Shown piece after piece: positions 25,019 to 57,493 of a DNA stretch of 64,000 bases. Under the pieces are notes generated by a model that saw only the letters and a list, made by a program, of their open reading frames with translations, was not told where the DNA came from and ran no database searches. Numbering within the stretch: the first letter of the stretch is position 1; the number at the start of each line of letters is the position of its first letter. The position numbers were made by a program, and so were the translations under genes. The stretch is from positions 170,764-234,763 of IMG/VR virus record IMGVR_UViG_3300029288_000055, one strand, 5' to 3'. The DNA is from a virus (Duplodnaviria > Heunggongvirae > Uroviricota > Caudoviricetes).

Positions 25019-25093
25019 ATGAAAAATTTAATAAACATAGTACCACAACCCCAACAGCATCCACAAAGTTTGGAATGGGGAAACTATGCTTAA
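25019..25093 (+). CDS. leader peptide A, MKNLINIVPQPQQHPQSLEWGNYA
   Basis: Eight consecutive Pro/Gln/His codons; located between promoter and terminator. Confidence 0.85.
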   Translation: MKNLINIVPQPQQHPQSLEWGNYA

Positions 25094-29325: not shown

Positions 29326-29355
29326 TTTGTATTTATGAAAAATTGATTATCTTTG
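29326..29355 (+). promoter_or_regulatory. Bacteroidota primary-sigma promoter, tRNA operon B
   Basis: TTTG(29326)-N18-TATCTTTG(29348). Confidence 0.75.
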
Positions 29356-29389: not shown

Positions 29390-29482
29390 ATGAAAAATTT
29401 ATTCGACATATTGGTAGCAGTCCTCATGGTGGATGTCCTATTATGGGCAGCCGAAGAGGATGATCTATGCGTAGTCGGGTAA
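29390..29482 (+). CDS. leader peptide B, MKNLFDILVAVLMVDVLLWAAEEDDLCVVG
   Basis: Residues 8-26 are all L/V/A/M/D/W/E. Confidence 0.85.
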   Translation: MKNLFDILVAVLMVDVLLWAAEEDDLCVVG

Positions 29483-29519
29483 TACTTTGAATATTACAAC
29501 CTCCTTTCTTATAAAAAAG

Positions 29520-29559
29520 AAACCCGACTACCCTAAATTTAGTCGGGTTTTTTGTTTTT
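29520..29559 (+). terminator. attenuator terminator B
   Basis: aaacccgacta/tagtcgggttt plus T-tract; 5' arm complementary to leader gtagtcgggt (29471-29480). Confidence 0.88.
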
Positions 29560-29570
29560 AGTGGTTGTAG

Positions 29571-29582
29571 GTTCTTTGACAT
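29571..29582 (+). promoter_or_regulatory. boxA-like antitermination element
   Basis: GTTCTTTGACAT just after the terminator; near-identical copy at 55626. Confidence 0.55.
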
Positions 29583-29593
29583 GTTGGAATTTT

Positions 29594-29672
29594 GGTGCTG
29601 GGGTCTGCTTGGTGTGGACGCATGACTGTCACTCATGATATCAGGAGGGTTCGATTCCCTTCAGCACCGCCA
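29594..29672 (+). tRNA. tRNA-Asp(GTC)
   Basis: ggtgctg/cagcacc, catga-ctgtcac-tcatg, G73, CCA. Confidence 0.88.
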
Positions 29673-29781
29673 TTCTCAACCGAAAGCAAGTAGGTTACTG
29701 GTGAAGCGGAGATCGTGACTCCAACCTTGATGGTTCGTTCCTGAGAGGGCATGGTTGCAAAAAACAGTTTGGGGATATTTT

Positions 29782-29854
29782 CGAGGCTGTGGTGTAATGG
29801 CTAACATACCTGACTGTCACTCAGGTGTCTGGGGTTCGAGTCCCCCGGTCTCGG
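29782..29854 (+). tRNA. tRNA-Asp(GTC), apparent 8/4 fold
   Basis: cgaggctg/cggtctcg acceptor, gggg/cccc T stem, cctga-ctgtcac-tcagg. Confidence 0.8.
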
Positions 29855-30031
29855 CACATTTTTACTGCCAAAGCAGTAAAAAATAAAAATTTGAGGTAAA
29901 AAGTATCGTTAATATCACTTTTTTATTTACTTTTACCGTTTTGGCAGTAAAAAACGACTATTTGTTAAGAAATAATAATTTGTTTCAAATAAAGTGCATT
30001 ATTTTGCACTAAATAAATTAATAAAGTATTT

Positions 30032-30634
30032 ATGAATATGAATGAAAATATTATATATGGTTTAAAAGACCCAAGGACTGATGAATATAAGTATGTTGGT
30101 AAATCAATAAAAGGAATCGAAAGAGCAAACTCACACTTAACACATTCTCATAATCCATTGGTTAATGAGTGGATTAATGAACTTAAAATGGATAGTTATG
30201 TTCCACTTGTTGTTATTTTGGAAAATGTTTCTGATTGGACACAATTGATCGATAAAGAAAAATATTGGGTCGGGAAATTAACCGATGAAGAACACGATTT
30301 ATTTAACATTTTAATTACAGATTCATATAACAATACGCTGGATTCCTATAATAAGAAATTGATACAACAAATAAAAGATAGGGAAAAAGTGTTAAATGAA
30401 AAGTTAAATAAATCATTAATGCAATTCGGTAGTGAATCAGATGTTGGTGATTTAATAAAAAGAAGACGTAAAACTCTAAAAGTAACACAACAACAACTTG
30501 CAGATATTTCTGGGGTTGGGTTACGAACAATAAAACTAATTGAATTAAACAAATCAAATGCGACTATTAATACTTTAATGAAAATATTTGATACTTTAGG
30601 TTATGAACTTTTCATTAACTTAAAAACAAAATAA
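30032..30634 (+). CDS. GIY-YIG-like endonuclease fused to an XRE-type HTH
   Basis: IIYGLKDPRTDEYKYVGKS...R..H...EKYW; C-terminal TQQQLADISGVGLRTIKLIE. Confidence 0.7.
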   Translation: MNMNENIIYGLKDPRTDEYKYVGKSIKGIERANSHLTHSHNPLVNEWINELKMDSYVPLVVILENVSDWTQLIDKEKYWVGKLTDEEHDLFNILITDSYNNTLDSYNKKLIQQIKDREKVLNEKLNKSLMQFGSESDVGDLIKRRRKTLKVTQQQLADISGVGLRTIKLIELNKSNATINTLMKIFDTLGYELFINLKTK

Positions 30635-30637
30635 TAT

Positions 30638-30720
30638 GCTGCGTTATACAAGCGACTAAAGTAGACAGACCTTCAATCTGTCATCGAAAGATTTCGTGGG
30701 TTTGAATCCCACACGCAGTA
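30638..30720 (+). tRNA. tRNA-Glu(TTC), C33, long variable arm
   Basis: gctgcgt/acgcagt, acaga-ccttcaa-tctgt, variant T loop tttgaat. Confidence 0.7.
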
Positions 30721-30817
30721 CGATGTTGAGGTGGTATTACACGGGGAAAAGAAAGTCCCTGCTGATAATCTAAAAAATGTGGACAGCATGTGGGTATAAA
30801 TCCCGCCAACTACACCT

Positions 30818-30889
30818 GCTCGATTCTTCTAATGGAAAGGAAAGCTGACTCTCAATCAGTTAACGGCAGTTCGATTCTGCCATCGAGTA
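30818..30889 (+). tRNA. tRNA-Glu(CTC)
   Basis: gctcgat/atcgagt, gctga-ctctcaa-tcagt. Confidence 0.85.
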
Positions 30890-30894
30890 CAAAT

Positions 30895-30969
30895 GCTCGG
30901 TTCGTCTAAGGGTTAGGATGTAAGACCTTCAATCTTAAAATACGGGTTCGATTCCCGTACCGAGTACCA
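30895..30969 (+). tRNA. tRNA-Glu(TTC), C33
   Basis: gctcggt/accgagt, taaga-ccttcaa-tctta, CCA. Confidence 0.85.
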
Positions 30970-31084
30970 AAATGGGGCATAAAAACCCCAGATGTTAAGT
31001 AAATGGGGAAAATATGCCCCATACTACAAAAATGTAGTATATTATCAACAAAAATGCCAGTTATGATGATAATATACAACAAAT

Positions 31085-31173
31085 GCACTTTTAGCTCAGT
31101 CTGGTTCAGAGCGCAACCCTTACAAGGTTGAGGCGAATAGTTCACGGGGGTTCGAATCCCTCAAAGTGCACCA
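31085..31173 (+). tRNA. tRNA-Val(TAC), long variable region
   Basis: gcacttt/aaagtgc, caacc-cttacaa-ggttg, CCA. Confidence 0.85.
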
Positions 31174-31175
31174 AT

Positions 31176-31251
31176 GCTCTTTTAGCTCAGTTGGGTCAGT
31201 AGCGTCTGTTTTACAAGCAGAAGGTCGTAGGTTCGAAGCCTACAGGGAGCA
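31176..31251 (+). tRNA. tRNA-Val(TAC)
   Basis: gctcttt/agggagc, tctgt-tttacaa-gcaga. Confidence 0.87.
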
Positions 31252-31363
31252 CAAAGGTCCGCACACAGGGGCGGACCTTAAATATAGGTAAAATAACCGA
31301 TATAATGCATTTATCGGTTGTAGAGGCGATAAAGAGTATTTATCGTGTGTAGAATGCATAAAC

Positions 31364-31445
31364 GTCCATATGTTGTAATTGGTAGCCAAGCTGGTCTAAG
31401 AAGCCAGTGCCGTAAGGCGTGTCGGTTCGACTCCGACTATGGACA
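31364..31445 (+). tRNA. tRNA-Leu(AAG)
   Basis: gtccata/tatggac, ctggt-ctaagaa-gccag, variable arm gcc-gtaa-ggc, A73. Confidence 0.85.
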
Positions 31446-31454
31446 CAACAAAAC

Positions 31455-31529
31455 GCAGGTGTAGCCGAATGGTCAAGAGGCAGCAGTTTTAGAAACTGAA
31501 ATTTGCGGGTTCGACTCCCGCCACCTGTA
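31455..31529 (+). tRNA. tRNA-Leu(TAG), short variable loop
   Basis: gcaggtg/cacctgt, cagt-tttagaa-actg. Confidence 0.8.
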
Positions 31530-31594
31530 CAAACGTTCTCTTTGAGTAGTAATATTCATTAAATTTGGTAGCAATATCAAGTAGGGAACACCAA

Positions 31595-31670
31595 GCGGAT
31601 GTGCTGGAACTGGTATACGGGTTGGCTTCAGACACCAATATTAATGAGGGTTCGAGTCCCTTCATCCGCA
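31595..31670 (+). tRNA. tRNA-Leu(CAG), short variable loop
   Basis: gcggatg/catccgc, Leu-type D loop, ttggc-ttcagac-accaa. Confidence 0.75.
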
Positions 31671-31748
31671 CCGACCTTATTCTGGATAACGAAGCAAATA
31701 GTTCCAGACACTCAGTCCTGAAGTCATGGTTCAGGAGTAAGGACAACT

Positions 31749-31821
31749 GCCCCGTTGACGTAATCGGCAACCGTATCAGTCTTAAAAGCTGAGTTTCACA
31801 GTTCGAATCTGTGACGGGGTA
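31749..31821 (+). tRNA. tRNA-Leu(TAA), short variable loop
   Basis: gccccgt/acggggt, tcagt-cttaaaa-gctga. Confidence 0.8.
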
Positions 31822-31956
31822 CAAAGGTGAATGCTGTTACTTATTTGCAGTAGTAACACCACCTGTGCCGAATAACTTGTAGAGAGGAAAGTAGTACTTT
31901 TCAATACTTTGTGGATTGCAAATATACATTGGTTGAGTTATTAAAAAGGCACACAC

Positions 31957-32026
31957 GGGCGTAAGAGTAATTCTCTGTAAGTCGGGTTGATCACCGAAGT
32001 AGGTTAAAATCCTACTACGTTCACCA
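31957..32026 (+). pseudogene. degenerate tRNA-like element
   Basis: gggcgta/tacgttc acceptor plus ACCA; gtagg-ttaaaat-cctac T-like arm; irregular anticodon arm. Confidence 0.45.
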
Positions 32027-32027
32027 C

Positions 32028-32101
32028 GGGGTCGTGGCTCAATTGGCTAAAGCATCTGCCTTGCACGCAGAGGACTGTGGGTTCGAGTCCCACCGACTCC
32101 A
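32028..32101 (+). tRNA. tRNA-Ala(TGC)
   Basis: G3:U70, tctgc-cttgcac-gcaga. Confidence 0.92.
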
Positions 32102-32138
32102 CAAACAAAGGTCCGCAAATATTTGCGGACCTTTACTT

Positions 32139-32212
32139 GGGGCATTCGCTTAGTTGGCTAAAGCATCTGTTTTGCAAGCAGAAGATCGTGGGTTCAACTC
32201 CCACATGCTCCA
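32139..32212 (+). tRNA. tRNA-Ala(TGC)
   Basis: G3:U70, tctgt-tttgcaa-gcaga. Confidence 0.9.
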
Positions 32213-32329
32213 CACAATCCATAATAATAAGGCAAGTAACAAATCTTGTGTTCGTGGGAACAACATGTCCGTGCGTGCGCAGGGATAAATTGGTTGATGC
32301 TCCAATCGTGCCCACGAAGGGTTGCACTT

Positions 32330-32416
32330 GTAGGTGTATTCCGTAATGGCGAAATTGGTTATGTCATCCATGTAACAAGGGTTGGAATGTTAGAGGTTCG
32401 AGTCCTTTCATCTACA
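32330..32416 (+). pseudogene. degenerate tRNA-like element
   Basis: gtaggtg/catctac acceptor, agagg-ttcgagt-ccttt T arm, anticodon unclear. Confidence 0.45.
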
Positions 32417-32422
32417 CAAACA

Positions 32423-32501
32423 ACGGATTTAACATAGTGGCAAGTGTTGCACCTTAAGTCCTGCGTGGCTGGTAACGGTGGTTCGATTCCATCAATCTGT
32501 T
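32423..32501 (+). pseudogene. degenerate tRNA-like element
   Basis: acggatt/aatctgt acceptor, D stem acat/gtgt, T arm ggtgg-ttcgatt-ccatc, weak anticodon stem. Confidence 0.5.
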
Positions 32502-32510
32502 GTTAAAAAT

Positions 32511-32593
32511 ACGCAAGTTGCCGAGTGGTTAAAGGCACGGGTCTCCAAAACCCGCAGAGAAATCTTTCGTGGGTCCAAATCCTACCTTGCGTG
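32511..32593 (+). tRNA. tRNA-Trp(CCA), long variable arm
   Basis: acgcaag/cttgcgt, cgggt-ctccaaa-acccg, G73. Confidence 0.75.
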
Positions 32594-32604
32594 CAAATTA
32601 AAAT

Positions 32605-32676
32605 GCGTCTGTCGTCTAATGGCTAAGACAACGGCTTCCAAACCCGTGAATAAGGTTTCGATTACTTTCAGACGTG
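32605..32676 (+). tRNA. tRNA-Trp(CCA)
   Basis: gcgtctg/cagacgt, loop ttccaaa, G73. Confidence 0.78.
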
Positions 32677-32727
32677 CTAAAATCAGATAATTATGAAAAC
32701 GCAAAAAGCAATGTGCATCCTAAAAGG

Positions 32728-33144
32728 ATGCTTACCAGAGAAGAAAAAAGACGTAGAAGACATAGTGATGAATTCAACAGAATTTTCACATTTTTCTTAA
32801 AGTCTTATCGCTACAAAATACTTGATTTTTCAGGTATTGAAGTGAAAACAAATATGGACATTAATGAAGACGATGGTAAAGTCTGTTTCAAAAATTTTGA
32901 CAACGGTGAATACAAAAGCATGAATTCAATGCCAACCAGACATCCAAACATATTGAAGGGTGTAATTGTTGGAAAAAAATCATGGGGTTTACATGTAAAG
33001 ATGTGGTCTGAAGGTATCTCCGAAGGTACATTTACCAAAAGAGAAATCTTACAACAATTTATAGATAATAAGATTGAAATACCAGAGCCATTTCTAATTG
33101 ATCTTGATAACACAATATTAAAGAAATTTCGAATGAAGCAATAG
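32728..33144 (+). CDS. hypothetical protein
   Basis: ORF; ATG chosen downstream of the tRNA. Confidence 0.45.
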   Translation: MLTREEKRRRRHSDEFNRIFTFFLKSYRYKILDFSGIEVKTNMDINEDDGKVCFKNFDNGEYKSMNSMPTRHPNILKGVIVGKKSWGLHVKMWSEGISEGTFTKREILQQFIDNKIEIPEPFLIDLDNTILKKFRMKQ

Positions 33145-33613
33145 TAAAAATCGCAGGTATGTACTGCAGGTTGGCGTTCTATCCAAAAGAACTAAAAGCA
33201 CAATTACCACTGAGGGCAGTTAATTCTGTACCCAAGAGCAATATCAGTTAGCAGTACACTATTGTTTCAAAAAATTAGAATATTTTGTAACTTTTTGGTT
33301 TTTTCTTCGTATAAAGAGTATTAATTTAATAAGAAAGGAGCAAGTCTTCAAAACACGAATTAAATACAGAGGATGTTGGTGGTGGAAAATTGTACATTAC
33401 AATTATTTTCATAAGAAACTTTTTAAAAATTTTTATGTACAAAAGAAAAAGAAACCATTTACCAATAGAGAAATTAAAAAATATGAACTATATAAAAAAT
33501 TCGATGATTTAATTACATTGAGACGAGTGGATTGGTTAAGAAAGTTTATATTTCTCATTGAGCCATAAATTTTCAGTATTTATTTGTAACATTTTTAATT
33601 AAAAATTATAATA

Positions 33614-34006
33614 ATGAAAAAAATATTATCATTACTTTTATTACTGGTATCCTTGACAGCTTTTTCACAGAGACATCAACACGAAAAATACTATCAGGAT
33701 AAGTTTGCTGAATTAATTTATGGAAGAACAGAAGTTGTTCTTGATGACAGGGCACGTGTTGATATTGTAACTGATACATTTGCAATTGAAGTTGATTTTG
33801 CACCTAAATGGGCAGAAAGTATCGGTCAATCTTTGTATTATGCTGAAAAACTTCACAAAAAAGCAGGTGTTTTATTGATAATAAAAGGAAATGACGATCA
33901 AAGATATACTGAAAGATTAATTACTATCGCAAAAAAATATAATATTACTATTTGGTTTATAGACTATACATCTGAAAAATGGAAGACGAAAAAATTTATA
34001 TTTTAA
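33614..34006 (+). CDS. signal-peptide protein with PD-(D/E)XK-like fold
   Basis: MKKILSLLLLLVSLTAFSQ; RVDIVTDTFAIEVDFAPKWAESIGQSLYYA. Confidence 0.55.
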   Translation: MKKILSLLLLLVSLTAFSQRHQHEKYYQDKFAELIYGRTEVVLDDRARVDIVTDTFAIEVDFAPKWAESIGQSLYYAEKLHKKAGVLLIIKGNDDQRYTERLITIAKKYNITIWFIDYTSEKWKTKKFIF

Positions 34007-34047
34007 TTGTTGTTTTTCTCATTGTAATATATTAAATTTGAGGCATT

Positions 34048-34761
34048 ATGTATATCATTGCAAAGAAAAAGGATTATTATGATGGTGTCGTTGGCACAAT
34101 GGGTGTTGACAAAACATTGGTCTATGAGCGTGAAACTCAAGAATTTGAAGGTGATGACATACCCGTAATATTTGAAAGAAAAAGAGGTTATTGGGGTATG
34201 AATCGTACAAAAACTCCTTTTCATCAAATGAATTATCATCAAATAAAAAAAGAATTTCGAAATGTTTGTGACGAGCACTCATATTTCATTATTGGATTTT
34301 GTGGCAAACTCTACATTGGTTGGAAACTTTACAGAGTAATAAATTCAAATGATGAAGTCAGCACAGAATTCACATATGATAATGAATATATGAAGAAAAT
34401 CTTAGAAGATAAAAGCTGGGATGGTACTCTTAGTGATAGCATTAACTACGTTCAGTCATTTAATGCACTTCAGATTTTTAGGGATTTAAAAAGTCCAGCT
34501 TTTGTGTATGACAGCGATTACGGTAGAACAAAACGTAATAATAATCATCATTCGAAATTCATTATCAATCCATTGTTGAAAAACTATGAATTTTTCAAGA
34601 TGTTTGACAGTTTTCAAGCATTTCAGGAAGTTTCGATGTTTATAGGTGGAGTACTTGGTAAAGGTGAAAAAGAAATAACTGAAGTTGCTGATAAATATAA
34701 GATTACACAACATGGTTTTAATAAATGGTCATTCAGAAAAGAACCAAAAATAAAGAAATAA
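34048..34761 (+). CDS. hypothetical phage protein
   Basis: 237 aa ORF, KDYYD...HGFNKWSFRK. Confidence 0.55.
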   Translation: MYIIAKKKDYYDGVVGTMGVDKTLVYERETQEFEGDDIPVIFERKRGYWGMNRTKTPFHQMNYHQIKKEFRNVCDEHSYFIIGFCGKLYIGWKLYRVINSNDEVSTEFTYDNEYMKKILEDKSWDGTLSDSINYVQSFNALQIFRDLKSPAFVYDSDYGRTKRNNNHHSKFIINPLLKNYEFFKMFDSFQAFQEVSMFIGGVLGKGEKEITEVADKYKITQHGFNKWSFRKEPKIKK

Positions 34762-34762
34762 T

Positions 34763-36155
34763 TATGAGAAAAGAAAATAGAGATGCATTAATTGAGGCAT
34801 TGCAAACACATTTGGATACCAGAGATAAAAGGTTTATGTTTTTGAAAATAGAATTTAAAGATTTTGTTTCTCGAATAAACCTTGAAGGTTCTGCACATGA
34901 TACTGCTTGGAATATTTATTCTGAATTTGAAAAGAATCAAATGTTGGGTTCTTTAATGGCATGTATAAACCATGTTTTCGATACTGAATTATATTTGGAT
35001 ATTATTAAAAAACGAAACGTATGAAAGTAAAAATTGGTGATAAAATCGTTGATGCTGAAAATGAACCAATTATGTTGATTTTCAGTGATGAAAAAGAAAG
35101 AAAAGCAGTAGCTAAAAACATAAAAGATATGGCAACTCAAGCATTAAAATACTGTACATTTCCAAATGAAATGCTCGCAGCAGATGTGGTAAAATTTATG
35201 AAAACAGAATGAAAAAATCAATTGCAGAAAAATATAAAGACAGAAAGGTTAATCCAAAGTACTATCAGACAATTAAAATAAGTGGTGGTATAGAAGGCGA
35301 ACCAAAAACACTAACCAGAAAAGAGTTTCAAGAGGGTAAACAGGGTATAGTTTGGGCAGACAATGAAACAGGTAAACTCGTGTTTGAAGATGAAGAAAAA
35401 CCAATTGGATTAATAGAAGGCATAAGGCAATATGAAGCCAACAAGCCACCAGTAAGACTTGAATCAGAACTTAATAAGGCATATAAAGGACAAAACAATA
35501 TGACAATATATGGTGGCTTTGAGTTCATTGAAAAATTAAGAAAATTGTTACCAAAGAAATATTTTAAATAACATGACAAATTCAGGTGAAGATATGAAAA
35601 AGATGCTGGAAAGAATACAGCGTGAACAAACAGAAAGAATGAAAAAAATTAATGAAAGGGTTTGTGGTTCAGTAAAAAATCCTTACGTACCCACTACAAC
35701 AGCTTCTTTTCTCAATCCACAAAGAAATTCAAATGATATGTTTGAGCAACTGGCAAAAGAAAATAAAAAATTAACAGAAGAAAAAATTAAATTGAACCTT
35801 AAAATATTACAATTGGAAAAAGAAAAATATGAACTTATGGAAAATTACGCAAAACTTAAGTCATATATTGAAGCCAATAAAGGTCAATTTTGGACTGATT
35901 TAAATAAAAACATTAAAAGTATTTATCAAAGAATAATTAACTGGTTTAATACCTGACAGTATGAAAAGGTTTAATGTAGCAAAATTTGAAATCGAAGAAC
36001 GATTGGCACATATAGATTATACTGGTGATATTTCTGATATTGGCAACGAAATTGGTATTATTATTGGTAAATATATTGACAAAGAAAACACTGTTGAAGA
36101 TTTTATTCGTGGTTTAAAACACGGAATATCATTAACTGATGGCACACACGCTTAA
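34763..36155 (+). other. run of five small hypothetical CDSs (34763, 35021, 35209, 35573, 35961)
   Basis: Tightly coupled or overlapping ORFs on the + strand. Confidence 0.55.
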
Positions 36156-36219
36156 GGTCAAAATTTAAATAAACATTAAATAATTAATTTTTTAATGTTT
36201 GTGGTTCTTTAAAAATATC

Positions 36220-36583
36220 GGGGATGACTTGGCTTTGACTGAATGGTCAGACTGGTAACGTAAGCAAGTAGTAGTTGAATCAGACTACTTTAAAAAGGTT
36301 CAAAACAATAGATGAAGACATAATGTCTATCCCAACTTCTCTCACGAGAGGTAAAAGCGTTTTTGTAAGAAGTGCAGAACTTCAAATCGCTGCGTAAGCA
36401 AGGGACACGAAAAAATTTGCACAAAAGTTCCTAACTTGAAGGGAAGGTAAACAAATTCAAGACAGTTTTGTAGTTATTCTGGAATAATACAACTAATATT
36501 TCGCTGGCTTAGAAAAACCAGATAAACTTGTAGAAAACTTATTACTCGCATTCAAGACGGGGGTTCAACTCCCCCCATCTCCA
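36220..36583 (+). ncRNA. ssrA: tmRNA
   Basis: 5' GGGGATGACTTGGCTTTGAC, 3' GACGGGGGTTCAACTCCCCCCATCTCCA, G3:U70, internal tag ORF ending ...LQIAA-stop at 36397. Confidence 0.92.
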
Positions 36584-36598
36584 CTAATTTGAATTATT

Positions 36599-37021
36599 AT
36601 GGAAAATTATAATTGGGAAAAAACTGGTATGTTAGAAGGATTAACGGGTAATACTCGTGAAACCGTTATAAAACTTTTTAAAGAAATTGACTTCAAATCA
36701 ATACCAGAAATTAAAGATTCTGTTGGTGTAGACACACTCATTTGTCCAGTAATAAGACGAATAGTTTCAGTAATCACGCCTGATAATTTACTGGTTCAAA
36801 ACAGTATCATTAAAGATCATTCAAGAGAAATTACAGAAGAAGACGTGCTTCCATTGATTGATGTAAAAGAAATAACAGAACTATTGATTGAATATGTTCG
36901 TGTTTTTATTCCATACGCAGAAAAATATTTACCAGACCTTGACGCACAAGCGGAAATGTGCTTATTGTTTTGTGATAATTATGTAATGAAACTGATTGGT
37001 AGAACTGGAAAATGGAAATAA
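36599..37021 (+). CDS. small paralog of the major capsid N-terminal region
   Basis: NWEKTGMLEGLTGNTRE...CPVIRRI versus MCP RWEKIGLLEGLEGNVKE...FPVIRRV. Confidence 0.7.
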   Translation: MENYNWEKTGMLEGLTGNTRETVIKLFKEIDFKSIPEIKDSVGVDTLICPVIRRIVSVITPDNLLVQNSIIKDHSREITEEDVLPLIDVKEITELLIEYVRVFIPYAEKYLPDLDAQAEMCLLFCDNYVMKLIGRTGKWK

Positions 37022-37023
37022 TT

Positions 37024-37454
37024 ATGAAAGAGAATCAATATCAAAAATCAGAAAGATTACTTAAAAAATGGTTTGATTCTGATGATGCTAAAATCTATTT
37101 TGAAAAAGAACGAAAAAACAAGAGTTTAAGCTCAAACGTTTTGCTCGTTTTGAAAAGTGGCTGGAAAATAATGATTTTGAAGCACTAATGTATCGTTTAA
37201 TTCTTGAACATGGTGAAAATTATCGTGAAAAATGTTATCATAAAGGTTATGAACCATACCCAAACAATAAATTATCATTTCTTATTGATTATGTATCAGA
37301 AAGTCTTGAACCAATAAGTGTACCACAACTTGAAAATATGTTTGGAACAAGTATTTGGTTTTTTAAAGGATATTATTTTAGGCTTATGTACGGACAGGGA
37401 ACTGTTTTTGATTTATATAATGGTGGCGATTTTAAACATTTATTAAGCGCATGA
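37024..37454 (+). CDS. hypothetical protein, apparently split by a -1 frameshift near 37113-37118
   Basis: Frame starting at 37024 continues plausibly into the frame of ORF 37188 if one A is added to the A6 tract. Confidence 0.35.
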
Positions 37455-37759
37455 CAACTTACAATAAACTGGTTAGAGACAAGATACTTAAAATAATTAA
37501 AAAGTCTGGTTCAGGTTATAAGTATCATATAGCAAAAGACGACACAGAATTTCTTGAAAAACTTTATGAAAAACTTCAGGAAGAAATTACTGAATTTAAA
37601 GAAAAACCAAGTGTAGATGAATTTGTAGATATGTTAGAAGTATTGGAAGCTATAGCAAAATATTATAAATTTAAATTGAATGATATTAAAACTATAAAAA
37701 CCAAGAAAAAAATAGATCGTGGTGGATTTAATAACAGAATAATACTTGAAGAATCATGA
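37451..37759 (+). CDS. MazG-like/PRA-PH-like NTP pyrophosphohydrolase
   Basis: YNKLVRDKI, KLQEEITEF, EFVDMLEV, KKIDRGGF. Confidence 0.75.
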   Translation: MTTYNKLVRDKILKIIKKSGSGYKYHIAKDDTEFLEKLYEKLQEEITEFKEKPSVDEFVDMLEVLEAIAKYYKFKLNDIKTIKTKKKIDRGGFNNRIILEES

Positions 37760-37921
37760 CAACAACAGAAAAAATTATTACCGTAGTACTTGAAGAAGTA
37801 AATGGCTACACTAAAGAAGAAGCAGAAAAATATGCAAAAGATTGTGAAGGAAGTATTACGTGGGAAAGAATTGATGCAATTGTAAATAAAGCAATTAAGG
37901 AAGCAAAAAAGAAATAACAAT

Positions 37922-38007
37922 GGCGTAGTGATGGAACTGGTAGACATGTAGGTCTTAAAAACCTATGGGCAGTAATGTCCGTGTGGGTTCGACTCCCATC
38001 TTCGCTA
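37922..38007 (+). tRNA. tRNA-Leu(TAA)
   Basis: taggt-cttaaaa-accta, long variable arm, A73. Confidence 0.88.
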
Positions 38008-38029
38008 CTATTTATATAAAAATAAAATC

Positions 38030-38490
38030 ATGAAAAAATCAAGCATACCTATTGATATTCTTTATGAAGAATGTCTTAAAGCAGTAAGAAAAGAAATTCG
38101 AAAGGATTGCTATCAGGAAGCAAAAGAAATTATTCGATTGGCTTCGGATGAAGATCGTAAAGAATTTCTTAAATATTTCAAAGAAGACAAAGGCAATATT
38201 TGTTGTTTAGTTCTTGATAGAATAAAACGTGATCTAATTACTGCAGGAAAACTTGAAGCAAATGATAATGATAATTTCGGTAAACCACTTATGTTATGAG
38301 TATATTGTTTAGAAATTGGCTGGAAGAAGGATATTATGAAGAAGATTCTTGGGGTAATCTAACACGAATAGAAGACCCTGACAGAATTTTTCAGGCACAA
38401 AAAGAAGGAACACTATATCATAATGATGGTATGGCAACCACTCAAGTATATTTGGGTGATAAACTTGATTTAAATGGCGAAAGTGATTAA
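38030..38490 (+). other. two small hypothetical CDSs (38030-38299, 38296-38490)
   Basis: Overlapping ATGA coupling. Confidence 0.5.
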
Positions 38491-38603
38491 GGGTAAAAAG
38501 CCAATACCGCAAGAAGATGATTGTCATTGTGGCAACCCTCTTAGAGTAAATGACCCTGCAAGAAAAAAAATTATCAGGGTCATAAAGAAAAAATGATTTA
38601 CCC

Positions 38604-38685
38604 CCTCATGTGGTGGAACTGGTAGACACGCACGCCTCAAAAGCGTGTGCCGTAAGGCATGTCGGTTCGAGTCCGACCATGAGGA
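38604..38685 (+). tRNA. tRNA-Leu(CAA)
   Basis: cctcatg/catgagg, cacgc-ctcaaaa-gcgtg, long variable arm. Confidence 0.92.
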
Positions 38686-38725
38686 CAATTGAATAATTAT
38701 GAGTATTTATTTAAAACTGTAAACT

Positions 38726-38780
38726 ATGAAAAGACCTTGGATGTATTTCTTGTAACTTGCTCTAATGCGAGTACAAGAAA
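38726..38780 (+). promoter_or_regulatory. micro-uORF MKRPWMYFL with a hairpin occluding the next start
   Basis: uORF 38726-38755; stem tttcttgta-a-cttgc/gcgag-tacaagaaa ends immediately before ATG 38781. Confidence 0.5.
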
Positions 38781-39077
38781 ATGAAAGCAAAATCAATTGA
38801 ACAAACATCCACAAATCGTGGAGAATTTAATCGTGCATACAAGCACTATTTAGAAAAAAAAGGCAAGATTCACTGTTCATATTGTGCTTATCACCGTTGT
38901 GAAAACGGTTGCGGGACAAAAATGTACGGTAGTATTGGTAGTGAAAGAATGAGATATCCTAACTGGAAACTTGTTTCAAAGCAACCAAAACAGTGGATGG
39001 AAAAACCCATCAAAAAAAGAGTTAAATATTATGGTGGGTATCAAAGAACATATGTTGAGATTACATTCTCAACATAA
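38781..39077 (+). CDS. small basic protein with CxxCxxHxC motif
   Basis: HCSYCAYHRCEN. Confidence 0.55.
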   Translation: MKAKSIEQTSTNRGEFNRAYKHYLEKKGKIHCSYCAYHRCENGCGTKMYGSIGSERMRYPNWKLVSKQPKQWMEKPIKKRVKYYGGYQRTYVEITFST

Positions 39078-39080
39078 TAT

Positions 39081-39152
39081 TGCGACTTGGTATAATGGTT
39101 AGAACGTCTCTCTCATAAGGAGCAGATACCGGTTCGATTCTGGTAGTCGCAA
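39081..39152 (+). tRNA. tRNA-Met(CAT); Ile2 not excluded
   Basis: tgcgact/agtcgca, loop ctcataa. Confidence 0.8.
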
Positions 39153-39153
39153 C

Positions 39154-39182
39154 AAAAAAACCTGTCGAATTCGACAGGTTTA
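39154..39182. terminator. probable bidirectional terminator ending the + strand block
   Basis: aaaacctgtcg-aatt-cgacaggttt between convergent genes. Confidence 0.65.
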
Positions 39183-44080: not shown

Positions 44081-44173
44081 ATGAGAACATTTGGTACATA
44101 TTATTACGGTAAAAAATCTTATAAGAAACAGCTTATAGGAATCGGGAATACTATGACCAAAGGTAAAATATAA
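44081..44173 (+). CDS. leader peptide C, MRTFGTYYYGKKSYKKQLIGIGNTMTKGKI
   Basis: YYYGKKSYKK cluster. Confidence 0.85.
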   Translation: MRTFGTYYYGKKSYKKQLIGIGNTMTKGKI

Positions 44174-55287: not shown

Positions 55288-55422
55288 ATGAAAACGTACA
55301 GGAAAATATCAGAAGATTCTACATCGACCTCAAGTCGCAATGGAAATGGTATATTCTGTTCAATTTTTACAGGCAGAAATAATGCAGATACGGGTTCTGG
55401 TTTTAAAGACATTGATTTGTAA
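55288..55422 (+). CDS. leader peptide D, MKTYRKISEDSTSTSSRNGNGIFCSIFTGRNNADTGSGFKDIDL
   Basis: Residues 11-32 are exclusively S/T/R/N/G/I/F/C. Confidence 0.85.
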   Translation: MKTYRKISEDSTSTSSRNGNGIFCSIFTGRNNADTGSGFKDIDL

Positions 55423-57355: not shown

Positions 57356-57419
57356 CAAAAATCCTTGTTAATCAAAAAAGAATCGCTATCTTTGTGTTTA
57401 GTTTATAAGATAGCAATAT

Positions 57420-57493
57420 AGTGACGTAGCTAAATGGTGACGGCAGTTGTCTTATAAGCAAAAGATGTGTGGGTTCAAGTCCCACCGTCACTA
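57420..57493 (+). tRNA. tRNA-Ile(TAT)
   Basis: agtgacg/cgtcact, ttgt-cttataa-gcaa, A73. Confidence 0.8.

Follow-up and report, generated by a model that had tools for sequence, protein, structure and literature searches.

The DNA considered here, called the window throughout, comprises 64,000 nucleotides (nt) of a virus of the class Caudoviricetes (IMG/VR record IMGVR_UViG_3300029288_000055, positions 170,764 to 234,763). Within it, a run of transfer RNA (tRNA) genes is preceded by a short open reading frame (ORF), leader B, and an intrinsic terminator, an arrangement that we call attenuator B. Leader B has 30 codons (29390-29482, +) and lies downstream of a host-type promoter (29326-29355, +), predicted by its match to the Bacteroidota housekeeping-type motif (TTTG, 18 nt, and TATCTTTG; -7 box consensus from PMC9723704). 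The terminator (29519-29559, +) consists of a 5' arm (segment 3), a 9-nt loop, a 3' arm (segment 4), and a U tract, and is followed by a boxA-like element (29571-29582, +) that is at least 90% conserved in the alignment. Next comes a core block of 16 tRNA genes (29594-32677, +), with two genes for Asp, three for Glu, two for Val, four for Leu, two for Ala, one with an unassigned anticodon, and two for Trp. A short, conserved leader ORF thus sits between the promoter and the first tRNA gene, as the attenuator class requires. Attenuator B is real as a sequence feature. Conservation, the geometry of the ribosome footprint, and the co-variation of leaders with their cargo of tRNA genes all lend strong support to leader-peptide attenuation of the Asp-to-Trp block. 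We consider it very likely that a ribosome-mediated leader-peptide transcription attenuator controls the tRNA genes at this site.

The leader frame is open in 42 distinct sequences, the lengths of which always differ by whole codons. These leaders were gathered via neighboring protein and DNA patterns, and 26 of the 42 were found without any use of the leader coding sequence. Wherever the downstream block is visible, it opens with a tRNA-Asp gene, and a host-type promoter is retained upstream of the related leaders. A phage motif, GTATTTAT, is nested in the leader B promoter at 29329. A scan for sigma-70 promoters was uninformative (82 found, 75 expected), and no Rfam model matched leader B at the gathering score or at E values up to 5. 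The control zone of the leader, codons 6-24 (29405-29461, +), is made up almost exclusively of Asp, Glu, Val, Leu, Ala, Trp, and Met. Over the whole leader, 22 of 29 residues belong to the first six of these, which are the amino acid types of the cargo (binomial P = 2e-6).

Segment 2, the antiterminator strand, occupies 29471-29480 (+), its last base being the first base of the stop codon. All 10 of its bases pair with 29522-29531 in the 5' arm of the terminator, as a sequence-only reading of this DNA had claimed; the ORF and the codons named in that reading are likewise present. Only 13 of 20,000 shuffled leaders reached a 10-nt match to this arm. The antiterminator (2:3) and the intrinsic terminator (3:4) are mutually exclusive, and the core pairs of the terminator are retained in 38-41 of 41 aligned sequences. 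The terminator hairpin (29519-29551) folds at -15.6 kcal/mol with the U tract next to it, and the region has a fold z of -4.08; a simple terminator scan missed this hairpin because of its long loop. Of 22 leader ends, 12 have their own terminator arm as the best pairing partner. Segment 1 (29399-29407, +) might pair with segment 2 when the ribosome is absent, as the minimum-energy fold weakly suggests. The long leader hairpin folds at -33 kcal/mol, and 2:3 pairing still wins in a ribosome-free model of the nascent RNA. An outer stem that would be possible only in read-through RNA (29495-29501 with 29563-29569, +) is modestly supported by relatives, in 27 of 40 of which its own partner does better than the median of swapped partners (mean -8.5 versus -6.2 kcal/mol).

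In codons counted back from segment 2, positions -15 to -5 of the 42 leaders are 89-100% cargo residues, a profile in which positions -12 to -9 were selected by the collection filter. Past -5, the fraction is 41% at -4, 80% at -3 (mostly Leu), 0% at -2, and 18% at -1. We compared this profile with a folding model that treats the nascent RNA at equilibrium and uses a ribosome footprint of -12 to +15, set by our own choice. In this model, the probability of the antiterminator is 0.95 with the A site at -5, 0.87 at -4, 0.18 at -3, and 0.01 at -2, and its median is 0 with the ribosome at the stop codon. The constraint on cargo residues stops at codon -5/-4 and therefore lies within one codon of the modeled footprint limit. 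The model is consistent with a switch in which a stall at the control codons frees segment 2 and a ribosome at the stop codon covers it.

Three sister leaders lie in the window, all on the + strand: leader A (25019-25093), with Pro, His, and Gln tRNA genes downstream; leader C (44081-44173), with Lys and Tyr; and leader D (55288-55422), with Thr, Cys, Asn, Ile, Ser, Phe, Gly, and Arg. Each is rich in the amino acids of its own block, and with Met counted to B, the four leaders together cover all 20 amino acids. In total, 53 of 69 control zone residues match their own block; random partitions average 20, and none of 200,000 reaches 53. The same four-way split, again matched, is found in a complete phage, G005, while a related phage, G001, divides the code differently (His/Trp/Ser/Ile/Asn/Met/Arg; Cys/Val/Leu; Phe/Glu/Asp/Ala; Pro/Gln/Tyr/Thr/Gly/Lys). 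Every amino acid of G001 occurs in its own leader, and 48 of 54 zone residues are matched, as against 21 of 54 at best when its zones are scored on the split of the present phage. For these comparisons, the Ile and Met genes of G001 were assigned from their anticodon loops, ARAGORN not having called them so, and segment 2 was set by hand for leaders B and C and for leader A of G005, the last at a fallback position. Further sets of leader and cargo were recovered by a search for the terminator and boxA alone. In one of these loci, L225, 19 of 19 zone residues match a block of 12-13 amino acids. Across 15 families, 92 of 94 cargo amino acids are present in their own leader, and 258 of 411 residues match, compared with a permutation mean of 131 and a maximum of 210.

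These matches bear on a very different account of the locus, in which the hairpin is a constitutive terminator or a processing signal, the ORF is a relic or encodes a small trans-acting protein, and the agreement with the tRNA genes arose by chance. Leader B is indeed hydrophobic and acidic, as some small proteins are. Against this, a terminator placed between a promoter and the first tRNA gene requires a bypass, unrelated leaders track unrelated cargo to an extent that permutation never reproduced, the residue constraint falls off near the modeled footprint boundary, and the choice among synonymous codons is conserved. We regard this account as very improbable.

Several points nevertheless weigh against attenuation as we describe it. 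In family B, hardly any variation is seen in the 2:3 and 3:4 cores, which thus offer no covariation. The folding model is an equilibrium one with a chosen footprint, and without a ribosome it favors read-through (0.70-0.83), unlike the trp paradigm. No pause site for synchronizing polymerase and ribosome was identified at leader B. The 15 families were picked by eye from loci whose downstream DNA was long enough, the match is poorer at truncated loci, and related sequences are non-independent samples. Leaders can also outlast their cargo, since two loci (L004 and L044) lack Val and Ala tRNA genes yet keep the corresponding codons.

Taking the parts together, we infer that leader B is translated and that the switch operates in vivo, in a mechanism that assumes coupling of transcription and translation in the host. 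Host polymerase would start at 29326-29355, with a ribosome following on the leader. If the test codons were all read quickly, the ribosome would arrive at the stop codon and cover segment 2, the terminator would form, and the transcript would end near 29555. If charged tRNA for Asp, Glu, Val, Leu, Ala, Trp, or Met were scarce, the ribosome would stall no later than about codon 24-25, leaving segment 2 to pair with the 5' arm of the terminator, and the polymerase would pass the boxA-like site into the tRNA block. Read-through would supply the scarce tRNAs, closing a negative feedback loop.

Synonymous codon use in leader B may indicate which tRNAs are being surveyed. The sequence-only reading saw broad sampling of isoacceptors, a description that fits some measures better than others. 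The number of distinct codons in this single leader is not significantly raised (12 versus 9.7 expected, P = 0.08), whereas codons rare in the phage account for 8 of 17, against 1.7 expected (P = 5e-5). Across the 42 leaders, GCC, CTA, CTC, GAG, and GTG each occur at most once per control zone, GCC appearing in 30 of 42 at seven shifting positions relative to Trp. Distinct codons summed over the 42 leaders number 609 against a shuffled maximum of 571, an excess inflated by common descent. The U-ending codons GCT, GTT, and CTT, the commonest in the phage, are avoided. The fit to the cargo itself is imperfect: GTC and GCC are used although the core block has no G34 tRNA for either, and CTT and CTG are nearly absent from the leaders despite tRNA-Leu(AAG) and tRNA-Leu(CAG) genes in the block. 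This pattern suggests that the leader samples the isoacceptors of the host and not the phage anticodons one for one; RNA structure may constrain some codon sites as well.

What the attenuator senses is a separate matter. Stalling is the same for an uncharged and for a missing tRNA, and the attenuator could sense amino acid starvation or a general slowing of ribosomes instead of specific tRNAs that have become scarce or been destroyed. In enterobacterial leu leaders, the Leu codon sensitive to starvation is CTA (PMC1183508), the codon set here fits the phage's own anticodons imperfectly, and codons persist in leaders after loss of the cargo, all of which would suit a starvation sensor. A general stress sensor would have no need of a block-by-block match between leader and cargo, however. 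The minor codons, Trp, and Met also occur about once each, while a leader becomes more sensitive to partial starvation as the share of regulatory codons in it rises (PMC1183508); codons present singly are better suited to long stalls. We consider sensing of starvation or general slowing unlikely. Because extra tRNA cannot cure a lack of amino acids, and because single codons give low sensitivity to partial starvation, we favor as the signal the loss or exhaustion of specific tRNAs, as might be caused by tRNA-targeting defenses. We are evenly divided on the broader proposal that large Bacteroidota phages survey the whole genetic code with a few attenuators. In this proposal, each attenuator would test roughly a single codon for every host isoacceptor and detect tRNAs lost to destruction or exhaustion (through defense nucleases, for instance), and the corresponding block alone would be switched on; in the present phage, long read-through of block B would also boost the distal Leu and Met tRNAs and the transfer-messenger RNA (tmRNA).

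Within the core block, the two Trp tRNA genes begin at 32511 and 32605, near the 32.5 kb given for them by the sequence-only reading. The gene at 32422-32502 (+) has an 8-nt anticodon loop (ARAGORN 'taag'), a feature also seen in L001 and probably in L003, and could be a tRNA for Leu that has decayed or one that reads frameshifts. A tRNA-Leu with an AAG anticodon, unusual for bacteria, lies at 31364-31446 (+) and is retained in most relatives. The block also contains an inserted ORF of 200 amino acids with a C-terminal helix-turn-helix domain (30032-30634, +; Pfam HTH_3, E 4e-9). Just upstream of this ORF, a 14-nt perfect inverted repeat at 29859-29953 is possibly an operator or an insertion end. 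Pfam gave no match for nine of the 10 proteins tested in and beside the region.

The Met codon of the control zone finds its counterpart farther downstream, in a tRNA gene with a CAT anticodon (39081-39153, +). Acceptor-stem pairs make this an elongator type, more likely Met than Ile2: its 1:72 position is paired, which identifies an elongator, and the next pairs are G2-C71, C3-G70, G4-C69, and A5-U68. TilS recognizes tRNA-Ile2 by C4-G69 and C5-G68 in E. coli, determinants that may differ in Bacteroidota. Both pairs are absent at 39081, which, with that proviso, counts against an Ile2 (lysidine) identity; a separate tRNA-Ile(TAT) gene is found at 57420. The gene at 39081 had been called the only CAT tRNA, which holds within the window and fails for the whole contig (C1), where an initiator-like one lies at C1:236268. 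Of the 42 B leaders, 34 carry Met in the control zone, where its position varies; about 31% would be expected to. In one related locus, L171, a Met tRNA gene is located inside the core block. The proposed link between the leader's Met codon and the 39081 gene is thus likely, as judged from acceptor pairs and leader composition.

The sequence-only reading further suggested that attenuator B may govern a 10-kb unit that includes the tmRNA. Several features are in keeping with such a unit. All credible genes up to 39153 are on the + strand, as that reading stated, the longer minus-strand ORFs overlapping + genes, and the minus-strand genes start beyond a hairpin at the strand switch (39158-39181), the likely far end of + strand transcription. 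A hairpin scan found no strong intrinsic terminator between attenuator B and 39158, and the hairpins that precede a T run between tRNAs are all weaker than -7.5 kcal/mol, except for two tRNA arms. The tmRNA gene itself (36220-36586, +; Rfam RF00023, 101 bits) follows a second boxA-like element (36204-36215, +), so that such sites both follow the terminator and precede the tmRNA. Downstream of it lie tRNA-Leu(TAA) and tRNA-Leu(CAA) genes (37922-38686, +), and the order of core block, tmRNA, Leu, Leu, and Met recurs in L005, L011, L073, L167, and G005. The distal tRNAs are for amino acids of the B type, and Met occurs in the control zone of B only. The tag peptide of the tmRNA is unusually long, at 27 residues (ARAGORN), and that of G005 is similar (28 residues).

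The same unit contains, however, a predicted internal promoter of a phage class (GTAAC, 16 nt, CGTATAA; 33287-33314, +) upstream of the tmRNA segment. A promoter of this class follows the last core tRNA in 17 of the 22 loci that reach far enough past that gene and is found inside the core block in none; two further loci have a host-type promoter in that place. The recurrence of the promoter means that the tmRNA need not depend on B, and the tmRNA segment is probably transcribable without it. That segment also carries some 15 genes for small proteins that belong to no known family, suggesting a timing of its own. It is unlikely, in our view, that a single 10-kb transcript is governed chiefly by attenuator B and that the tmRNA supply depends on it. 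Firm control by B probably extends over the Asp-to-Trp block, up to about 33.3 kb. The segment with the tmRNA would be transcribed from its own predicted promoter and gain only extra read-through, which would bring the two Leu tRNAs and the Met tRNA farther downstream under B as well. Such read-through is plausible because a strong intrinsic terminator is absent and Met is confined to the control zone of B, and the chances of its reaching the Met tRNA seem to us evenly balanced.

At the end of the core block lies a structured RNA of about 135 nt (33135-33268, +) that has no Rfam match and is present in 20 viral contigs. Of its 30 predicted pairs, 19 are changed on both sides, with strong compensatory changes in two stacked stems and invariant single-stranded motifs. 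The GTAAC-N15-18-CGTA class numbers 62 copies on C1, 54 of them intergenic, versus 5-9 in shuffles. The fuller form, GTAAC-N15-18-CGTATAA, resembles promoters of extracytoplasmic function (ECF) sigma factors, and the phage encodes two short sigma factors. Promoters of the GTAAC class cluster in two convergent arms, mainly beyond the window (window-relative 98,000-186,000); the copies in the window are at 33287, 40166, and 62588. The GTATTTAT motif occurs 119 times on C1, compared with about 64 in shuffles, with a peak 14-15 nt before start codons, and is probably a late promoter. Its sites in the window include 24232, 28519, 42643, and 61029, and the promoters of leaders A, B, and C each contain a nested copy of it. 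Block D contains host-type promoter matches at 57365 and 58108 (+) and may have internal starts. Two atypical tRNA-like genes of G001 (L204:1054-1145 and L204:1250-1340), with GAT and TAT anticodon hairpins, have an extra arm and no normal D arm and belong to an attenuated block whose leader has Ile. Outside the four attenuated blocks, a tRNA with a CTA anticodon (amber suppressor type) is found at C1:237313-237385 and, in G005, at L203:14045-14118.

Contig C1, within which the window lies, has 362,763 bases (30.5% GC) and comes from a 1.27-Mb assembly. It encodes a Gp23-type major capsid protein (E 8e-65), two short sigma factors, 55 tRNAs, and one tmRNA, and is on these grounds a jumbo phage of the T4-like kind, sharing its bin with a bacterium that is not necessarily its host. 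The host is probably a member of the Bacteroidota, because TAnnTTTG promoters, the consensus of that phylum (including the -7 box; PMC9723704), precede all four tRNA blocks, because the boxA-like motif is nearly identical to one in an rRNA spacer of Algoriphagus limi (a single instance, with one mismatch, between 16S and 23S), and because the capsid resembles that of Flavobacterium phage immuto (40% identity over 45% of the query). Immuto has three tRNAs, and no leader of the B kind was seen in its sequence. A search of GenBank phage DNA for cultured relatives gave matches at the tRNA level only. Among GTDB bacterial genomes, the 68 pattern matches were chance-like apart from one, a 5.9-kb contig in an Anaerolinea bin (L078) that resembles the phage loci. 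TilS was not found in the assembly, a result that says nothing about the host.

Why phages carry tRNA genes is a question more than 50 years old (PMC10264068). A sensor wired to such genes would reveal the phage's own cue, the slow decoding of particular codons, and would turn codon compensation, starvation, and tRNA-destroying defense into rival predictions for a single reporter assay. Leader-peptide attenuation would also be extended beyond enzyme operons, to feedback control of the supply of tRNA, and a part of about 300 nt could report tRNA loss in Bacteroidota. The abstracts of PMC10264068, PMC11555353, and PMC11464382 describe phage-encoded tRNAs that replace host tRNAs lost to defense nucleases; they cover the tRNAs and their effect, with no switching sensor.

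The switch itself is of the known trp/ilv/thr type. Like the enterobacterial attenuators (ilvGMEDA and thr, and also trp, his, leu, and pheA), it has a short leader ORF with control codons, a 2:3 antiterminator opposed to a 3:4 terminator, and a stop codon beside segment 2, and leader B shares the use of CTA for Leu with the Salmonella leu leader (PMC1183508). Leader-peptide attenuation has also been proposed for amino acid operons of Flavobacterium (PMC9723704). We rejected an assignment of B to the trpL, leuL, ilvL, or thrL families of operon attenuators, given the tRNA genes downstream and the lack of a Rfam leader match. In T-box riboswitches, tRNA status sets a choice between terminator and antiterminator upstream of translation-related genes. 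The T-box (RF00230) resembles B in this respect but binds uncharged tRNA directly and needs no leader ORF, which B has; with no Rfam T-box match at the leader, a T-box identity for B (stem I specifier loop, T-box bulge) was also rejected. As in rrn boxA antitermination, boxA-like motifs occur here, after terminator B and before the tmRNA, but the putative motif at B follows a conditional terminator in a phage tRNA block. In the literature searched, which lacked most subscription papers, we found no account of such a switch acting on tRNA genes, with re-programmable leaders sharing the whole code among them. Unlike the enterobacterial systems, attenuator B would control phage tRNA genes and not biosynthetic enzymes, would read six or seven amino acids with about one copy of each minor codon in place of codon runs, and belongs to a set of four modules that cover all 20 amino acids in a split that varies between phages.

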